The position numbers were made by a program, and so were the translations under genes. The notes below the pieces were generated by a model, which saw nothing but the letters and a program-made list of their open reading frames with translations, did no database searches and was not told the DNA's origin. A stretch of DNA of 64,000 bases, taken from sequence record NC_104190.1; one strand, written 5' to 3'. The DNA comes from Escherichia phage IME178. Below are positions 18,985-29,066 of this stretch, in pieces. Positions within the stretch are counted from its first letter, which is position 1. Every line of letters starts with the position of its first letter.

Positions 18985-19071
18985 TGGTGCTGGGCACAGG
19001 ATTCGAACCTGCAATGGGATTACTCCTCCTGATTACAAATCAGGTGCATTCAACCATTCTGCCAACCCAGC
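18985..19071 (-). tRNA. tRNA with long variable arm; anticodon ambiguous (UGU or GUA)
   Basis: Acceptor GCTGGGT/GCCCAGC, T-arm GGTTCGAATCC, 15-nt variable region, loop TTTGTAA. Confidence 0.55.
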
Positions 19072-20618: not shown

Positions 20619-20654
20619 AATAATAAGATGATGCCTCTATCACACCAGGCAGTT

Positions 20655-20730
20655 ACGCCCCGCTGGGATTCGAACCCATTAAAACAGCTCAACCGAGATA
20701 GTAGGTTTAATTTACTCTGACCATCAAATT
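20655..20730 (-). other. tRNA-like element, possible pseudo-tRNA
   Basis: Perfect T-arm-like GGGTTCGAATCCC but no acceptor stem could be paired by hand. Confidence 0.3.
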
Positions 20731-20807
20731 TGGTGCGTGACAAGGGATTCGAACCCTCAAAACCCGACTTCTAAGGACGGTATGTATGCCCATTCCATCA
20801 ATCACGC
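20731..20807 (-). tRNA. tRNA with UAG anticodon loop (Leu-type) but short variable arm
   Basis: Acceptor GCGTGAT/GTCACGC, loop CTTAGAA, 77 nt with CCA; one T-T mismatch in anticodon stem. Confidence 0.5.
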
Positions 20808-20812
20808 GTATT

Positions 20813-20891
20813 TGGTGGAGAATAACGGAATCGAACCGTTCTGATGTCCTCGGTGCAAGCGAGGTGTCCACTCCATGCAGACCCATTCCCC
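20813..20891 (-). tRNA. tRNA-Ala (anticodon UGC)
   Basis: Anticodon arm CCTCG-CTTGCAC-CGAGG, encoded CCA. Confidence 0.65.
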
Positions 20892-21150
20892 AAATTCTTT
20901 AGTTTACTAAGGCTATTAGCTCGGCGTAACTACAGCACCTTCGCTTAGAGCGGAAGGAACTACGTCATCTCGCAAACCCAATACACTATTCAGTTGCCGC
21001 TGAATCTAGTGGACCAATCTAGAACTTCTCCCGAATCGTAGGGATCGTGCTTTTTGGCAGCCAGTCCTAGGTCGAGCTAATACCTTAGTGAACTATGATG
21101 AGGATTTCTCCTCATCAATTTATATAAATATTATAACAAGAAATTAAGCA

Positions 21151-21510
21151 TCAAGCAAGTACATTTTTGCAGACTTCTTGTATTTCCTTAACATCGCTAA
21201 TGAAAAGGTAATCGGAACTTCCAGAGTGCATACTAGACATTAGTACACCACTATCTGGTGCATCTTCTTTTAACGTAATGCCTAACCAGAACTCGGCAAA
21301 ACTAGGTGTTACCTCACCTTGACTTGCCTTGAATACATCGGCTTCTGTGATCTCCTGACCAGTAGAAAGTCCCATGTACGGTACGTTCAGATCAATATCT
21401 TTGTAGAACTCAGCTAAATCTTGTTCGAAGTCCCAACCTTTAGAGATAGCGAACTCCATTGTCACATGACCGAAATAACCTTGAATCTTGCTTGATAATT
21501 GCATTTGCAA
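21151..21510 (-). CDS. hypothetical protein (119 aa)
   Basis: ORF between tRNA blocks, promoter motif upstream. Confidence 0.45.
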   Translation of the reverse strand: MQMQLSSKIQGYFGHVTMEFAISKGWDFEQDLAEFYKDIDLNVPYMGLSTGQEITEADVFKASQGEVTPSFAEFWLGITLKEDAPDSGVLMSSMHSGSSDYLFISDVKEIQEVCKNVLA

Positions 21511-21529
21511 TTCCTTATTTTGAGTTAAT

Positions 21530-21603
21530 TGGTACCCGGTGATAGAATCGAACTATTTCAACCGCCATGTAAAGACGGGGTTCTCCCATTAAACTAACCG
21601 AGC
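21530..21603 (-). tRNA. tRNA-Val (anticodon UAC)
   Basis: Anticodon arm CCGTC-TTTACAT-GGCGG, encoded CCA. Confidence 0.6.
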
Positions 21604-21607
21604 AAAT

Positions 21608-21686
21608 TGGTAGATCGCCTGGGACTTGAACCCAGAACCTTCCGATTAAAAGTCGGATGCTACTAAACCTATTGAGCTAGCGATCT
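21608..21686 (-). tRNA. tRNA-Lys (anticodon UUU)
   Basis: Anticodon arm TCCGA-CTTTTAA-TCGGA, T-arm GGGTTCAAGTCCC, CCA. Confidence 0.65.
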
Positions 21687-21687
21687 A

Positions 21688-21855
21688 TTAGTAACCATTG
21701 TATACTTCTTTAATAGAGTGAACTTTCAAGTAAGGGTGATTAGTACTAAACTCTGCCATTACTTCATCCCAATTTCTACCATAATGAGCAAGTAAGGATT
21801 TTGATGTATTCTTACCTAAGCGTTTGTCACTTACTACTAATCGAAATACTTTCAT
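21688..21855 (-). CDS. small hypothetical protein (about 55 aa)
   Basis: ATG with GAGGAT RBS between tRNA genes; below the ORF-track size cutoff. Confidence 0.3.
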   Translation of the reverse strand: MKVFRLVVSDKRLGKNTSKSLLAHYGRNWDEVMAEFSTNHPYLKVHSIKEVYNGY

Positions 21856-21875
21856 TTCGAAATCCTCTATTAAAA

Positions 21876-21952
21876 TGGAAGCGGGTGCAGGAATCGAACC
21901 TACCTCTTTCTAGCTTATGAGACTAGCGATCTCTACCAGAGATCTAACCCGC
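21876..21952 (-). tRNA. tRNA with CAU anticodon (Met or Ile2)
   Basis: Anticodon arm CTAGT-CTCATAA-GCTAG, encoded CCA. Confidence 0.6.
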
Positions 21953-21959
21953 AATTGTT

Positions 21960-22037
21960 TGGTCTCCGTGGGAGGATTTGAACCCCCGACCCTATCGCCC
22001 CAAACGAAACGCTCTGGCCAAACTGAGCTACACGGAG
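21960..22037 (-). tRNA. tRNA-Pro (anticodon UGG), tentative
   Basis: D-arm TAGCTCAGTTTGG, acceptor CTCCGTG/CACGGAG, loop TTTGGGG. Confidence 0.55.
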
Positions 22038-22041
22038 AATA

Positions 22042-22200
22042 TTATTTCTTCAACCACAACAAAGATAAGCCAAGCATACTAAAGCCACTAACTAATCCGA
22101 TACATTTTTCTTCTATAGTAAAAGTATCTAGATTAAATGCTGTTATAGCTATTGGCATACACCATAATGCCATAAAAACTTGAGCTATCTTGTGTTTCAT
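22042..22200 (-). CDS. small hydrophobic protein (52 aa)
   Basis: ATG with AGAAGGAAAG RBS and conserved promoter/leader at 22205-22270. Confidence 0.35.
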   Translation of the reverse strand: MKHKIAQVFMALWCMPIAITAFNLDTFTIEEKCIGLVSGFSMLGLSLLWLKK

Positions 22201-22653
22201 TTTGCTTTCCTTCTCTTCACTTTATAAAATATATTATACAGATAATTAAGAGAAATAGCAAATGAATTTTTAATAAATTTACTTATTGTGTAGGCCACCT
22301 GGAGGCTACCAACCCCACGGCTGACAAAGAAGTTTGCGAGACCTCTCTTAAATGCCAGAATAGACCCGCCGATCTATCGGAACCTACATAATAAGTAAAC
22401 TTTATAGTGTCATTCTAGACAGGACTCGAACCTATTATCACTTGTGCGGACTTACGAGAACCATTCTTTCACTCGAATCGAACGAGCTTCTGCCCTAGCC
22501 AAGCTGGTTTCCCCATCAACCACGCTAGAATGTTTGATTGTTTTCAGTGCAAGAGTCCGAGTCTTGGACACGACCGCTTTGCAAGTACATAGGCAGCTTA
22601 TCATGAGTCAGCACTTCCGAATTGCTAGCTCCGTGTTCTGCACTGAAATTTTA

Positions 22654-23001
22654 TTAGTTTAACCTTAAAGTATTATCTACTTCACCATTAATTGTTCGGC
22701 ATTCCTCTGGAATTGCTGGAGTAGCCTTGTATTCCCACCACTCAGCTCCATCATATTCCCCACGTTCTAGCCAGGTTCCATCGGCAAACCATACATTACC
22801 ATAAAGTAGTTGTCCACCATAACCAGAATCATACTCAAAGTCTAGGTTATTAAGAAAATCCCCAATATCTTCTTCTGTATACCCCAGAGGTAATACCCAA
22901 ACTTTTTTGTCCCCATAATACCCGAATTCTATTTTAATACACTTAACTTCAGAATTAGTATTTTTTAAGGCAAGTAACAACTCTTCTTTAGCATTACGCA
23001 T
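22654..23001 (-). CDS. hypothetical protein (115 aa)
   Basis: ORF between tRNA blocks. Confidence 0.45.
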   Translation of the reverse strand: MRNAKEELLLALKNTNSEVKCIKIEFGYYGDKKVWVLPLGYTEEDIGDFLNNLDFEYDSGYGGQLLYGNVWFADGTWLERGEYDGAEWWEYKATPAIPEECRTINGEVDNTLRLN

Positions 23002-23027
23002 AGTATATTTCTCGTGCTAGTTTAGTT

Positions 23028-23103
23028 TGGTACACCCACTAGGACTTGAACCTAGAACCCTCCGCTTAAGAGGCGGTAGCTCTAACCATTGAGCTATGGA
23101 TGT
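23028..23103 (-). tRNA. tRNA-Lys (anticodon CUU), tentative
   Basis: D-stem GCTC/GAGC, loop CTCTTAA, T-arm CTAGGTTCAAGTCCTAG, CCA. Confidence 0.55.
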
Positions 23104-23281
23104 ATTAAATTACTTTTTCCAGTTCATCAGCTATGGCTTTGATTTTTTCAAAGTTTACATCACTAATAATGATACCTTCCAGTGACAGAGATATTCTAGC
23201 ATTTTTTCGTAGCAGATTCTTTTATCTGCTCTATCTCTTCTGGAGTAAACTCTCTACGTTCCATAGCTAACCTACATTATT

Positions 23282-23358
23282 TGGCGCGACCGATGGGATT
23301 CGAACCCACATTCTCTCCCGTGACAGGGGAGTACCCTTACCAAGCCAGCCCCGGTCGC
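23282..23358 (-). tRNA. tRNA-Asp (anticodon GUC)
   Basis: Acceptor GCGACCG/CGGTCGC, anticodon arm CTCCC-CTGTCAC-GGGAG, CCA. Confidence 0.7.
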
Positions 23359-23367
23359 ATAATTCAT

Positions 23368-23553
23368 TTACTCAGCTTTGAGTTTTTCAATAGCTGCATT
23401 AAGTTCTTTAAGAAACTCTTTCCGTACATTAAGCTCTCGAATACTCATTAAAAGATCAGCCTTTCGAGCTTCAATATCTTTTTGTCGGCACTTAATGTTA
23501 TTAGCTGTGTTATCACGATGAACTTCTAGCTGTGCAATTACATTCTTGGACAT
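23368..23553 (-). CDS. coiled-coil hypothetical protein (61 aa)
   Basis: Small charged helical ORF. Confidence 0.4.
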   Translation of the reverse strand: MSKNVIAQLEVHRDNTANNIKCRQKDIEARKADLLMSIRELNVRKEFLKELNAAIEKLKAE

Positions 23554-23655
23554 GCTTGTTTCCTCAGTTATTAATGAAAATGGTATCTGTGGCTGAATTC
23601 GATATCAGCAATGATAGCTGGTTGGCTACCGGTTTACTTAACTCTACACAGAATT

Positions 23656-23738
23656 TGGCGGGCCGTGTAGGATTCGAACCTACGTTGTCTTTCGACATGG
23701 ATTAACAGTCCACCGCCAAACCGCTTGGCTAACGACCC
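23656..23738 (-). tRNA. tRNA with GUU anticodon (Asn-type) and extended variable arm
   Basis: Acceptor GGGTCGT/ACGGCCC, loop CTGTTAA, 13-nt variable region, CCA. Confidence 0.55.
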
Positions 23739-23890
23739 TAAATTTATATTGCTGACTAGGATTTTCACCTAGACGGAGTTAGCACCGTAGCGTGTAGCGG
23801 CATACCTCTCCAAACCGTGCCTCATCTTTCAATTACGGAGACAGTGTTCCTACGCGTGCCTGAATTGATTTAACAATTCTTTCAGCAAAT

Positions 23891-23966
23891 TGGACGACCG
23901 CATGAGATTTGAACTCACATAAAAAGGATTTGCAATCCTTCGCCTAAGCCATTCAGCCAACGGTCG
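23891..23966 (-). tRNA. tRNA-Cys (anticodon GCA)
   Basis: Anticodon arm AAGGA-TTGCAAA-TCCTT, encoded CCA. Confidence 0.65.
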
Positions 23967-23971
23967 ATTTA

Positions 23972-24259
23972 TTATCTTTCATAATGTATAGCTACATGGT
24001 CGGAACCACAATTGCTACACACTTTCTTACCTGTTTTAGAGTAGTAATCTTGATCACCACATTCATAACAGATACATAATTCTTTTTCTTGTTTTTCGAG
24101 ATCTTCAAATTCTAGATCATTGAAGTCCCCTAGAGTACGGGTGTAAAACCCATCTCCTGAGTCATAGCCTGATTTACCACAATCACACATTTTAAATTCA
24201 CGAAGATGTGTGAAAATGTGCTTGGAACCACAACACTTAAATCTAACTAATCGTTTCAT
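23972..24259 (-). CDS. zinc-ribbon hypothetical protein (95 aa)
   Basis: Several CxxC pairs (CDCG, CYECG, CSNCG). Confidence 0.45.
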   Translation of the reverse strand: MKRLVRFKCCGSKHIFTHLREFKMCDCGKSGYDSGDGFYTRTLGDFNDLEFEDLEKQEKELCICYECGDQDYYSKTGKKVCSNCGSDHVAIHYER

Positions 24260-24498
24260 TTAACACGCTCCGGTAGATCTTCTAGTTTATATTCAGTAGC
24301 CACATTAGCAGCATCTAAAAGTAATCCCATGTGTTTAAGGATTTTAGTGATAGATTCGCCTTCGGCTTCTTCTACGAAAGAACGTAAATGAACAAAGTCA
24401 ATTCCACCGTCCATACCAGAGAAAATATTTAGTAAGCGAAGCATTACCAGCTTACGTTCATTCAATTCTTGTTCTGTCATGTTGCTTCTCCAGTTCAA
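24256..24498 (-). CDS. hypothetical protein (80 aa)
   Basis: ORF downstream of promoter motif at 24500-24545. Confidence 0.45.
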   Translation of the reverse strand: MNWRSNMTEQELNERKLVMLRLLNIFSGMDGGIDFVHLRSFVEEAEGESITKILKHMGLLLDAANVATEYKLEDLPERVK

Positions 24499-24547
24499 TT
24501 TATGTAATTATTATACAGAACTTTTAGAAACTAAGCAACTACATTTT

Positions 24548-24826
24548 TTAAGAATTTGATGCCTTTTTTTTTTTTTTTTTCTTCTTATACTTCCACGTTA
24601 ATGGATTCTGTCGATTGTGAACGCTTGAGATCTTTGTCTCGTCAAAGTTCTTCAATACCATGTAATCACAAGATAATTGTTCTAATGGAATGTGATCACC
24701 GTCAAAAGCGTATACATAAGGCTGTTGACTAGCACTATAATGATAGACTTTGTTAATTCTACGTTTCAGCAACTTATCCGCGCAGTAAATAAAGAAGTTT
24801 TCAGGATGCATCAGCAGCTCCCTCAA
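24548..24826 (-). CDS. hypothetical protein with C-terminal poly-Lys encoded by an A17 tract
   Basis: ORF runs through a 17-nt homopolymer giving KYKKKKKKKK before the stop. Confidence 0.4.
   Translation of the reverse strand: MRELLMHPENFFIYCADKLLKRRINKVYHYSASQQPYVYAFDGDHIPLEQLSCDYMVLKNFDETKISSVHNRQNPLTWKYKKKKKKKKASNS
24564..24580. repeat. 17-nt T/A homopolymer
   Basis: Uninterrupted T17 on the plus strand inside the 3-prime end of a minus-strand ORF. Confidence 0.9.
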
Positions 24827-24828
24827 TT

Positions 24829-24903
24829 TGGTGCACCCTGTTCGTATCGAACGAACCTCTCAAGCTCTTCAGGCAAGCGCTAATCCATCTCAGCTAAAGG
24901 TGC
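24829..24903 (-). tRNA. tRNA-like gene, possibly Phe (anticodon GAA) with mismatched anticodon stem
   Basis: Good acceptor and T-arm (GTTCG-TTCGATA-CGAAC); loop CTGAAGA; two U-U mismatches in anticodon stem. Confidence 0.4.
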
Positions 24904-24909
24904 AAATTT

Positions 24910-24980
24910 TGGCAGGGGTAAAGGTATTCGAAACCTTTTCATGGGTTTTGGAGGCCCATTTGCAACCTATGCGTACCCCA
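24910..24980 (-). tRNA. tRNA-Trp (anticodon CCA)
   Basis: T-arm AAGGT-TTCGAAT-ACCTT, loop CTCCAAA, encoded CCA. Confidence 0.55.
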
Positions 24981-24989
24981 ATTATTAAT

Positions 24990-25064
24990 TGGCACACCCA
25001 ACGAGGATCGAACTCGTGTTCCCACTGTGAAAGAGTGATGTCCTAACCGCTAGACGATAGGTGC
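24990..25064 (-). tRNA. tRNA-Glu (anticodon UUC)
   Basis: Anticodon arm TCACT-CTTTCAC-AGTGG, T-arm ACGAG-TTCGATC-CTCGT, CCA. Confidence 0.6.
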
Positions 25065-25071
25065 ATTAATT

Positions 25072-25159
25072 TGGTGGGCGTTAATGGAGTCGAACCACTC
25101 GAGTCGCAATGACCAGGGATTTACAATCCCCTCCGCTACCACTTACGGAATAAACGCCC
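25072..25159 (-). tRNA. tRNA-Tyr (anticodon GUA), type II
   Basis: Acceptor GGGCGTT/AACGCCC, anticodon arm GGGGA-TTGTAAA-TCCCT, long variable arm, CCA. Confidence 0.7.
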
Positions 25160-25289
25160 ATATTTAGAAGTATTCAAAAATTTTCATTTAAACACTTTTA
25201 AATATGTTTCCAAATTAGATAAATATTATACCAAGTTTTAAGGCACTGAGCAAGTCAAATTTTAAAGAACTTGCTCAGTACTGTATTAG

Positions 25290-25565
25290 TTAGTCGAACT
25301 TAGGAGTGACAGTTAAGGAGAATGGAAGTTCGAAAACTTCTTCACCCTCATCACTAACAGTAATTACACGGCCTTTAAGTTCAGACATTGAAATATCAAT
25401 ATCAGCTTTTGCATCTGGAGCCATTCCAGCTTCAACACATTTAGCTTTAACTTCCGGCAGAAGTTCTACATCGTAGAAATAAAGCCATTCAATCTCACCT
25501 TCCCAGCCTTCCCAGGATTTACAGATTGCACTTTCAATACCAGTTGCTATAACACGATTTTGCAT
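25290..25565 (-). CDS. hypothetical acidic protein (91 aa)
   Basis: ORF downstream of promoter motif. Confidence 0.45.
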   Translation of the reverse strand: MQNRVIATGIESAICKSWEGWEGEIEWLYFYDVELLPEVKAKCVEAGMAPDAKADIDISMSELKGRVITVSDEGEEVFELPFSLTVTPKFD

Positions 25566-25655
25566 TAGTTAACTCCTTCATCAATTTATATAACTATTAT
25601 ATCAGAAATTTAAAGCAAAAGGCAAGTACATTTTTAAAAATTCTATTTGGAGGAG

Positions 25656-25862
25656 CTAAACTCCAGATTCTTCAGCCAAGTCTAGACTAATAAGAGATAT
25701 AGCCATAATTGCTGCTGCGTGCTCTTTTTCTCCAGTCTCTTTAGCTAGAGTTATAATATCAAGAATTTGCTTATGAAAGTCTGCAACCTCTTGAGTCATA
25801 CCTGCTTCAGCAATCATGCCTTTAAGCATGAAACGTTGTGCGGTAATTTCAGGATTAGCCAT
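25656..25862 (-). CDS. hypothetical protein (68 aa)
   Basis: Small ORF. Confidence 0.4.
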   Translation of the reverse strand: MANPEITAQRFMLKGMIAEAGMTQEVADFHKQILDIITLAKETGEKEHAAAIMAISLISLDLAEESGV

Positions 25863-26037
25863 GTTGTTTCTCCAGTTTCATCTTTAATAGTCTACAAATA
25901 AAATCAATGTCTTCATCCGTGCCTAAATCTCTATCTTCAAGAGTTGCCTTGAAGTTTTTAGTCAATTCCATGAGGATAACTTCTCTAGAACGACGTGTTG
26001 GCGGAGGTGGAGGTCTATACATCTTATTTCCTTAATT

Positions 26038-26114
26038 TGGTAGGGGTGGTGGGATTCGAACCCACAAAACCTGAATTTTAAGTCCAGTACCTATGCCAAT
26101 TCGATTACACCCCC
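26038..26114 (-). tRNA. tRNA with UAA anticodon loop (Leu-type) but short variable arm
   Basis: Acceptor GGGGGTG/CACCCCT, anticodon arm CTGGA-CTTAAAA-TTCAG, T-arm GTGGG-TTCGAAT-CCCAC, 5-nt variable loop, CCA. Confidence 0.55.
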
Positions 26115-26215
26115 ATGTAATCAGTTTATTAGTTGATACATATTATAGCCTAGTGAAAATCCTACTACTAGTCCCACAAACCAACCAATATAATAATCTT
26201 TTAGTTTCACAGGTA

Positions 26216-26401
26216 TTATCCTCTTTCAATATCTAGAGAAATACCACAGCTAGGATTAATACCTGTACCCTTGCAATTTGGGCAAACCCAGATATTGCAA
26301 AAAGTATCTCCTGCTTCTGCATCAGAACTTTCACCGATCCCCCTACACTCAGGGCAGGCACATTCTTCTAGCTCTTGCTTGAGTTCTTGAAACTTAGACA
26401 T
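26216..26401 (-). CDS. zinc-ribbon hypothetical protein (61 aa)
   Basis: CPEC...CPNC cysteine pairs. Confidence 0.4.
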   Translation of the reverse strand: MSKFQELKQELEECACPECRGIGESSDAEAGDTFCNIWVCPNCKGTGINPSCGISLDIERG

Positions 26402-26410
26402 ATAGTCTCC

Positions 26411-26599
26411 TTAGTCAATTACTTTTGAGGCTTCAAGGTAATCGATATAGTGTACGTTTTCTACCGTAATCATATAATCTGCCACTTTATCCATAGCTTG
26501 GGCTTCAGAGGTAGCTCTGGCTAACCTATATCCTTTTTTATATTCATCAGGGTATTCTCTATCTTGAATAAACACAACATAAACTATGTATAATTCCAC
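26411..26599 (-). CDS. hypothetical protein (about 62 aa, GTG start)
   Basis: Track ORF trimmed to GTG 26599 with AGGGGA RBS so it no longer overlaps two tRNA genes. Confidence 0.35.
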   Translation of the reverse strand: MELYIVYVVFIQDREYPDEYKKGYRLARATSEAQAMDKVADYMITVENVHYIDYLEASKVID

Positions 26600-26619
26600 T
26601 TGTAATCCCCTAATTAAGT

Positions 26620-26697
26620 TGGTGGCTCCCCGAGGATTCGAACCTACGTACCTTCCGGTTATGAGCCGGGTGCTCATACCATATGAGCTTGAGAACC
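26620..26697 (-). tRNA. tRNA with CAU anticodon (Met, fMet or Ile2)
   Basis: D-stem GCTC/GAGC, anticodon arm CCGG-CTCATAA-CCGG, CCA; T-stem weak. Confidence 0.5.
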
Positions 26698-28984: not shown

Positions 28985-29066
28985 CTTACCGACCGTAGGA
29001 TTCGAACCTACATCTTCCACCAGTTACGGCTTGATAATACCAATTATACTAGGACGGCAGTGTTAC
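28985..29066 (-). other. tRNA-like element, possible pseudo-tRNA
   Basis: T-arm GTAGG-TTCGAAT-CCTAC and D-arm-like AGTATAATTGG, but no anticodon stem found and no CCA. Confidence 0.3.

Follow-up and report, generated by a model that had tools for sequence, protein, structure and literature searches.

Two Class I-Shaped tRNA-Leu Genes of Escherichia Phage IME178 Carry the Identity Set of Escherichia coli Leucyl-tRNA Synthetase

Two tRNA-Leu Genes Lacking the Long Variable Arm

The 64,000-nucleotide (nt) stretch of Escherichia phage IME178 (NC_104190.1) analyzed here, referred to as the window, contains two tRNA genes in which the leucine anticodons UAG and UAA are found in a body of class I shape, with a 5-nt variable loop in place of the long arm. 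Both genes very probably encode functional leucine tRNAs, derived from ordinary long-armed tRNA-Leu by loss of the arm with the leucine core kept. The genes were called with ARAGORN and Rfam RF00005, parsed in the standard numbering, and located as follows:

20731-20807, minus strand: tRNA-Leu(UAG), class I shape, 77 nt, CCA encoded; anticodon at 20771-20773, 5-nt variable loop GUUUU at 20759-20763
26038-26114, minus strand: tRNA-Leu(UAA), class I shape, 77 nt, CCA encoded; anticodon at 26078-26080, 5-nt variable loop GUUUU at 26066-26070

The first-pass annotation of this DNA had given the same coordinates and anticodons, and ARAGORN returned exactly these on the minus strand, in agreement with RF00005. 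The full model (positions 1-71) was matched by both tRNAs, with scores of 47.7 bits (E = 1.4e-9) for tRNA-Leu(UAG) and 57.4 bits (E = 2.1e-12) for tRNA-Leu(UAA), the gathering score being 29. The covariance-model alignments and the parse agreed on a 7/7-bp acceptor stem, the T loop UUCGAAU and the discriminator A73. They also upheld the rest of the anatomy previously described by hand, namely the normal acceptor and T arms, the encoded CCA, the 5-nt variable loop and the anticodon loops CTTAGAA and CTTAAAA. These loops (CUUAGAA in the UAG tRNA and CUUAAAA in the UAA tRNA) have the normal seven nucleotides and U33. The anticodon positions given by the software were unchanged and refolding yielded no long arm, these being the two points on which the earlier description could have failed. 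Moreover, when the window was searched for the pattern CTTARAA-N13/14-GTTCRANTCC, which has class I spacing, the only matches were the two leucine sites, with 0.00 expected from shuffled sequences.

Some departures from the regular cloverleaf were observed. The UAA tRNA has G1.U72, in common with E. coli leuZ. In the UAG tRNA, U30.U40 is mismatched in the anticodon stem and G13.A22 does not pair; the tRNA call was unaffected, and G13.A22 is the norm for tRNA-Leu. Single-sequence minimum-free-energy folding recovered the cloverleaf for neither of the two tRNAs and its z-scores were weak; covariance models and comparative covariation were used in its place.

The Leucine Identity Elements Are Complete in Both tRNAs

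For the E. coli leucyl-tRNA synthetase (LeuRS), A73 is crucial, the elements A15-U48, G18G19 and A20a are required, and the contacts linking the D and T loops and the U8:A14 pair also matter (PMC9976931). The enzyme needs neither the anticodon nor the long arm, and a truncated tRNA-Leu without anticodon arm and variable arm is still charged by it (PMC9976931). In both phage tRNAs, U8:A14, A15:U48, G18G19, A20a, A26 and A73 were all present, together with U54, U55, C56 and A58 of the T loop. Both have a 3-bp D stem with G13.A22 unpaired, and 9-nt D loops of the form AAU(U/G)GGCAU (AAUUGGCAU / AAUGGGCAU), with the layout A14 A15 .. G18 G19 N20 A20a N21 common to phage and host. The full E. coli LeuRS identity set is carried by both tRNAs. 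Considered as class II tRNA-Leu, they lack the long arm (at least 11 nt with a stem), having 5 nt in its place, and possess the leucine core (13:22 unpaired, A22, A15:U48 and A73).

The tRNAs leuZ(UAA), leuW(UAG) and leuV(CAG) of E. coli K-12 were parsed identically as controls. The variable arms of the three measure 13-15 nt, which confirmed the premise of the first-pass annotation that bacterial tRNA-Leu is normally long-armed and makes the phage pair, with GUUUU, atypical. The phage tRNAs have the same anticodons as leuZ and leuW, and share with them U8:A14, A15:U48, the 3-bp D stem, R13.A22, G18G19, A20a and A73. The D loop of leuZ, leuW and leuV is AAUYGGUAG; A26 is found in leuZ and leuW, and G26 in leuV. 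Since the remaining core features are common to both, the main difference from the host tRNA-Leu is the arm. In the anticodon loop, leuZ and leuW have U32 where the phage tRNAs have C32, and leuW has G37 and U38 where the phage UAG tRNA has A37 and A38. G37 is the site of m1G37, a modification believed to protect CUN codons from +1 frameshifting, and in the phage UAG tRNA the A at this position follows G36. As A37 is likewise found in the long-armed Leu(UAG) of phage T5, it is a trait of the phages that does not depend on the arm.

The class I shape, atypical for leucine, had led to the suggestion that the two tRNAs may be charged in another way or serve in recoding: a different synthetase would accept the body, or the tRNAs would work in frameshifting or readthrough, and UUR and CUR codons would be partly reinterpreted during infection. 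A precedent for a mismatch between shape and anticodon with altered charging is reported for the nematode nev-tRNAs (PMC3333845), and some RefSeq records label the phage genes tRNA-Xle or tRNA-OTHER. The suggestion was not supported, as both tRNAs keep all the elements that E. coli LeuRS is published to need. The anticodons pair with UUR and CUR and not with stop codons, and the anticodon loops are of the ordinary 7-nt type with U33, so that the features of a suppressor or recoding tRNA are absent. Such altered charging or recoding is therefore considered highly improbable, and the two following sections bear further on it.

The Short tRNA-Leu Family Has a Class II-Type Core and a Fold under Selection

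To place the two genes among their relatives, viral contigs of IMG/VR were scanned for class-I-spaced UAR tRNAs (at least 120 loci among the matches listed). Control loci were selected from IMG/VR viral contigs through an unrelated tRNA, Arg-UCU, and ARAGORN was run on all loci of both sets. The loci listed, to which the figures in this paragraph and the next refer, provided 150 distinct short tRNA-Leu, 39 long tRNA-Leu and 820 other class I phage tRNAs. The pattern of the first scan fixes A37 and A38, and frequencies for the anticodon loop, which would be biased in that set, were left out.

The discriminator A73 was found in 99% of the short tRNA-Leu (149/150) and in 55% of the other class I tRNAs. 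The corresponding values were 98% and 88% for U8:A14, 90% and 35% for A15:U48, and 51% and 2% for A20a. All six features of the leucine core occurred together in 34 of 150 short and 21 of 39 long tRNA-Leu, but in none of the 820 other class I phage tRNAs, which again argues against another synthetase taking the class I body. Positions 13 and 22 were paired in only 3% of the short and 3% of the long tRNA-Leu, compared with 83% of the other class I tRNAs, and A22 was present in 92, 90, and 26% of the three groups, respectively. This class II-type D arm is the clearest signal of a tRNA-Leu origin. Because their D arm matches that of class II tRNA-Leu, the short genes are best explained as tRNA-Leu after arm loss and not as class I tRNAs with a drifted anticodon.

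Additionally, 38 diverse members were aligned without gaps. Paired states were observed in 98.1% of the cells and compensatory changes at 21 of 21 pairs, including 15:48, and the identity elements of the tertiary core were invariant or at least 90% conserved. These sequences gave a covariation score of 0.965; shuffles scored 0.22, and slid controls did not exceed 0.17. The tRNA fold is under selection.

These results also bear on whether the two genes are decayed relics, or decoys acting outside translation. The tRNA region is dispensable in laboratory mutants of T5 (PMC12409363, PMC11555353), the cluster of IME178 holds degenerate tRNA-like elements such as that at 28987-29058, and a single mismatch is present in the anticodon stem of the UAG tRNA, all of which would fit decay. 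By contrast, 290 phage records carry the UAA gene at 99-100% identity and about 160 carry the UAG gene at 95% or more, compensatory covariation is strong across divergent phages, and the universal tRNA positions, the CCA and A73 are intact, with Rfam scores far above the threshold. Decay or a decoy role is consequently very hard to reconcile with the data, and functional leucine tRNAs remain the favored explanation.

UUA and CUA Are Leucine Codons in the Phage

The codons that these tRNAs would read are frequent in IME178. In 57 open reading frames (ORFs) of the window, UUA accounted for 25% and CUA for 20% of the leucine codons, together 45%, and the GC content of the phage is 38.7%. In E. 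coli, CUA makes up roughly 4% and UUA roughly 13% of the leucine codons. As their usage exceeds these frequencies, UUA and CUA are leucine codons over-used by the AT-rich phage.

The meaning of both codons was analyzed by aligning the phage enzymes ThyA, NrdB, NrdA, NrdD and PolA to their E. coli orthologues (overall identity 40%). A leucine of E. coli was found opposite UUA in 19 of 39 cases (49%), opposite CUA in 26 of 50 (52%) and opposite the other four leucine codons in 64 of 138 (46%), with no significant difference (Fisher p = 0.59). No second amino acid was enriched at UUA or CUA in the five phage enzymes compared with E. coli. UUA and CUA were thus shown to mean leucine in the phage, aligning with leucine of E. 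coli like the other leucine codons, and the recoding that the first-pass annotation had entertained found no support on this side either. A tRNA inserting another amino acid at 45% of the leucine codons would be highly damaging.

Proposed Route and Points Against It

Functional leucine tRNAs of this kind would operate as follows. The genes would be transcribed within the phage tRNA cluster and processed, as suggested by the encoded CCA and by the position of the UAG gene 5 nt downstream of tRNA-Ala(UGC) (20813-20891); at this distance, the two genes are probably co-transcribed. The host LeuRS would then charge both tRNAs with leucine, all the required elements being present. Finally, the charged tRNAs would decode UUA/UUG and CUA/CUG as leucine, in keeping with the observed meaning of the codons. 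Their role would be to provide extra decoding capacity for the two over-used leucine codons, and a possible further role would be the replacement of host tRNA-Leu lost during infection. Charging by the host enzyme and use in translation are both predicted here from the sequences of the tRNAs and of the phage genes. No aminoacyl-tRNA synthetase was found among the large ORFs of the window that were scanned, although a phage-encoded LeuRS itself was not searched for. A scan for promoters and terminators around both genes revealed no enrichment (12 promoter-like sites, with 16.2 expected from shuffles).

Several points weigh against this explanation. E. coli LeuRS has been described as charging type II tRNAs only, and the sole bacterial type I tRNA-Leu tested with it, the tRNA-Leu(CAA) of Streptomyces coelicolor, was not charged (PMC6614811). 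The variable loop of that tRNA reads A44 C45 A46 G47 C48, so that no A15:U48 pair is formed; because C48 removes the pair required by E. coli LeuRS, the failure does not carry over to the phage tRNAs. T5 mutants that lack a large part of the tRNA region remain viable under laboratory conditions (PMC12409363, PMC11555353), and any benefit of the tRNAs must therefore be conditional. The UAG tRNA combines the U30.U40 mismatch with A37, where E. coli leuW has G37. The RefSeq labels mentioned above are a further point of this kind.

Comparison with Known Short and Long tRNA-Leu

The phage is T5-like (Tequintavirus), and its tRNA region is 96% identical to that of Escherichia phage AKFV33 and matches 615 phage records. 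The comparison with the annotated T5 set (NC_005859) proposed in the first-pass annotation was carried out, and T5 was found to have a long-armed Leu(UAG) in the same slot and no Leu(UAA). The T5 gene, tRNA-Leu1(UAG) (T5t10), lies 5 nt downstream of tRNA-Ala as in IME178, and has the same anticodon, A73 and A37. It differs in being 85 nt long and of class II, with the variable arm AGCUUAAAUGCGU; counted by hand, it is about 60% alike with the short UAG gene in the 5' half, and it cannot be aligned with it in the 3' half. The homology between the window and T5 extends from tRNA-Ala into the 5' half of the leucine gene and then breaks, and in T5 the homing-endonuclease gene hegC lies just beyond, flanking Leu(UAG); the window has no hegC there. 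In the place of the window segment 26044-26610, T5 has the endonuclease gene hegA. The two leucine loci (26044-26610 and about 20620-20770) thus differ from the T5 segment L242 (8372-9077 and 3023-3672, respectively) exactly at HNH homing-endonuclease genes, which suggests that homing endonucleases may drive the turnover of tRNA alleles at these slots. A RefSeq note on T5, according to which an exchanged anticodon makes the tRNA an amber suppressor, was considered as functional evidence and rejected, as it concerns the 85-nt long-armed allele of T5 and not the short gene.

In a blastn search against 5,426 E. coli genomes, no chromosomal homologue of either tRNA was detected, the only matches being T-arm fragments on plasmids. 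This lack of a homologue is uninformative on the origin of the genes.

Three other kinds of short tRNA-Leu are available for comparison. The type I tRNA-Leu(CAA) of S. coelicolor also has a 5-nt variable loop and a leucine anticodon, and U8:A14 is important in it (PMC6614811). As with the Streptomyces type I tRNA-Leu, which occurs beside type II tRNA-Leu, the phage tRNAs coexist in the infected cell with a type II tRNA-Leu, in this case that of the host. The Streptomyces tRNA differs in having C48 and no A15:U48, and the LeuRS that charges it has a leucine-specific domain adapted to it (PMC6614811), whereas the identity set of the phage tRNAs is of E. coli type and the host LeuRS on which they must depend is unadapted. 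The animal mitochondrial tRNA-Leu(UUR) is likewise of class I shape and has A73 and A14 as identity elements (PMC9976931), but it is organellar and floppy, and its dedicated mitochondrial LeuRS also contacts the anticodon stem. A further parallel is provided by engineered minimal E. coli tRNA-Leu without the arm, which keeps A73 and the tertiary contacts linking the D and T loops and is still a substrate of LeuRS (PMC9976931). The phage tRNAs resemble natural counterparts of these molecules. The minimal tRNAs are laboratory constructs assayed in vitro, while the phage genes occur in nature, are conserved and are under selection.

Distribution of Short and Long Alleles

At an identity of at least 95%, the short Leu(UAG) was found in about 160 phage records and the short Leu(UAA) in about 320, 290 of these at 99-100%; most are annotated as tRNA-Leu. 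The long Leu(UAG) of T5 type occurred in about 52 phage records. Some phages, such as DaisyDussoix and Lindwurm, combine a long UAG with a short UAA gene. Given the shared slot in T5 and these mixed combinations, the long and short alleles appear to be interchangeable.

More distant relatives, at 80-86% identity, were found in Felixounavirus, in PVP-SE1 (Vequintavirinae) and in phages of Pectobacterium, Pseudomonas, Aeromonas and Vibrio. In the Felixounavirus warpig, the UAG, CAA and UAA tRNA-Leu are all short (77-79 nt), and the tRNA-Ser beside them has 89-90 nt. The Leu(UAG) of Salmonella phage PVP-SE1 has 77 nt, and Pseudomonas phage ZC08 carries an 84-nt UAG and a 77-nt UAA gene. Two other genes of the PVP-SE1 cluster were observed in passing, an 85-nt tRNA-Asn and an 86-nt gene (L367, 557-642) annotated as tRNA-Lys, which ARAGORN calls an undetermined tRNA with the four-base anticodon ggca.

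In the control sample selected through Arg-UCU, class I shape was found in 9 of 46 tRNA-Leu (20%, in six loci), in 1 of 26 tRNA-Ser and in 0 of 12 tRNA-Tyr. This count was made strictly by the length of the variable region, and four genes with 11-12-nt arms were not counted as short. The tRNA-Ser and tRNA-Tyr of the same phages have kept their arms. The seryl-tRNA synthetase (SerRS) and the bacterial tyrosyl-tRNA synthetase (TyrRS) depend on the arm, and the asymmetry between leucine and the other two is what would be expected if the arm is an identity element for these enzymes and not for LeuRS. The loss would be tolerated for leucine because LeuRS does not use the arm.

Short tRNA-Leu with the same core was also detected in bacteria. 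In a scan of 185,579 species genomes, it was present in at least 89 loci (89 of 120 among the matches listed). Among these matches, A73 and A15:U48 were each found in 98%, and most were solitary UAA genes. Many of those listed belong to Actinomycetota (such as Nocardia, Mycobacterium, Arthrobacter and Gordonia), and a few lie in arrays of 10-25 tRNAs.

Why the Arm Was Lost

The conservative reading is that the loss of the arm was tolerated. An adaptive loss was also considered, in which a leucine tRNA still charged by the host LeuRS would escape effectors that read the class II arm or target host tRNA-Leu, as one instance of a broader process by which phage tRNAs have their variable arms and anticodon loops remodelled. 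Escape of this general kind has experimental precedents, as the T5 tRNAs for Lys, Thr and Asn resist the AriB effector of PARIS (PMC11464382, PMC12409363) and the T5 tRNA-Tyr resists the retron Eco7 (PMC11555353). The arm itself can be read, since MenT3 picks its targets by arm length and orientation, although it favors Ser over Leu. Human SLFN11 and SLFN14 are reported to cleave type II tRNAs. By contrast, no known bacterial effector has been reported to target tRNA-Leu through its arm, and the literature on bacterial Schlafens, PARIS and the retron Eco7 contained nothing on tRNA-Leu or its arm.

The anticodon loops of the phage tRNAs are unlike those of the host, with C32 in both and also A37 and A38 in the UAG tRNA, and the short tRNA-Leu are found in loci rich in tRNAs (median 13 per locus, compared with 6 for the long ones, among the loci listed), both of which would fit adaptation. 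Single phages, on the other hand, carry long and short alleles together, and solitary short tRNA-Leu genes occur in many bacterial chromosomes, which neutral tolerance fits at least as well. An adaptive loss of the arm is accordingly regarded as unlikely.

Two other tRNAs of the window show the reverse situation, a long arm on a tRNA that is short in T5. The tRNA-Thr(UGU) at 18985-19071 (minus strand) has 87 nt, a class II shape and a 15-nt variable arm, AGGAGUAAUCCCAUU, and the T5 tRNA-Thr in the same slot has 75 nt. It also has a 3-bp D stem with G13.A22, A15:U48, A73 and G1-C72/C2-G71. No recoding signal was detected at ACA, which aligns with Thr in 11 of 30 cases. The tRNA-Asn(GUU) at 23656-23738 (minus strand) has 83 nt, with a 13-nt variable-arm hairpin, GUCGAAAGACAAC, while the T5 tRNA-Asn has 78 nt and a 5-nt loop. 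Positions 36-41 read UAAUCA in the tRNA-Thr, as in the AriB cleavage site of the host tRNA-Thr, and UAAUCC in the tRNA-Asn, as in the host AriB site; the short T5 versions read UAAGCA and UAAGUU, respectively. Elsewhere in viral contigs, only a minority of the Thr, Asn and Ile genes have a long arm.

That the armed Thr and Asn of the window keep the host AriB site, while the short versions of T5 have substitutions there, may be taken in favor of the adaptive explanation. In viral contigs, the association between arm length and retention of the AriB site was weak, the site being kept in 5 of 5 long and 24 of 46 short tRNA-Asn, and no difference was seen for tRNA-Thr. A general form of the idea, in which the remodelling of variable arms would be a phage counter-defence that keeps the identity for the synthetase and loses the fit to tRNA-targeting nucleases or transferases, has circumstantial support and is judged improbable. 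Tolerated loss is retained as the explanation for the two tRNA-Leu.

Other tRNA Features of the Window

According to ARAGORN, the minus strand of the window holds 22 tRNA genes, located from 17.9 to 28.5 kb. Two further calls were made by Rfam only and missed by ARAGORN:

26623-26697, minus strand: anticodon loop CUCAUAA (CAU), with four non-standard stem pairs; syntenic with the T5 tRNA-Ile2(CAU)
28987-29058, minus strand: degenerate tRNA-like element with a poorly aligning anticodon arm, in a region annotated in T5 as the stable 'RNAX'

Discussion

Hundreds of records list the genes described here as tRNA-Leu, animal mitochondria and Streptomyces already provide known cases of type I tRNA-Leu, and the function proposed is an ordinary one. 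No description of class I tRNA-Leu in phages was found in the searchable literature, where the commonness in phages of arm-less tRNA-Leu with the E. coli-type identity set appears to be undescribed. This commonness contradicts the view that the arm is universal outside animal mitochondria (PMC9976931). In a 2019 study, the type I tRNA-Leu of Streptomyces was treated as rare and in need of an adapted synthetase (PMC6614811). The phage genes suggest otherwise, as many phages, those of E. coli and Salmonella and others as well, have a tRNA-Leu that lacks the arm and carries the complete E. coli-type identity set.

The finding has a bearing on annotation, given the labels tRNA-OTHER and tRNA-Xle that these genes have received in some RefSeq records, and on the current debate over whether phages carry tRNAs to supply codons or to evade immunity that targets tRNAs. 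The structural point is real and general, while the likely mechanism can be derived from what is known of LeuRS biology. These phage tRNAs would be a natural confirmation that the long variable arm is dispensable for leucine identity, and not for serine or tyrosine identity.

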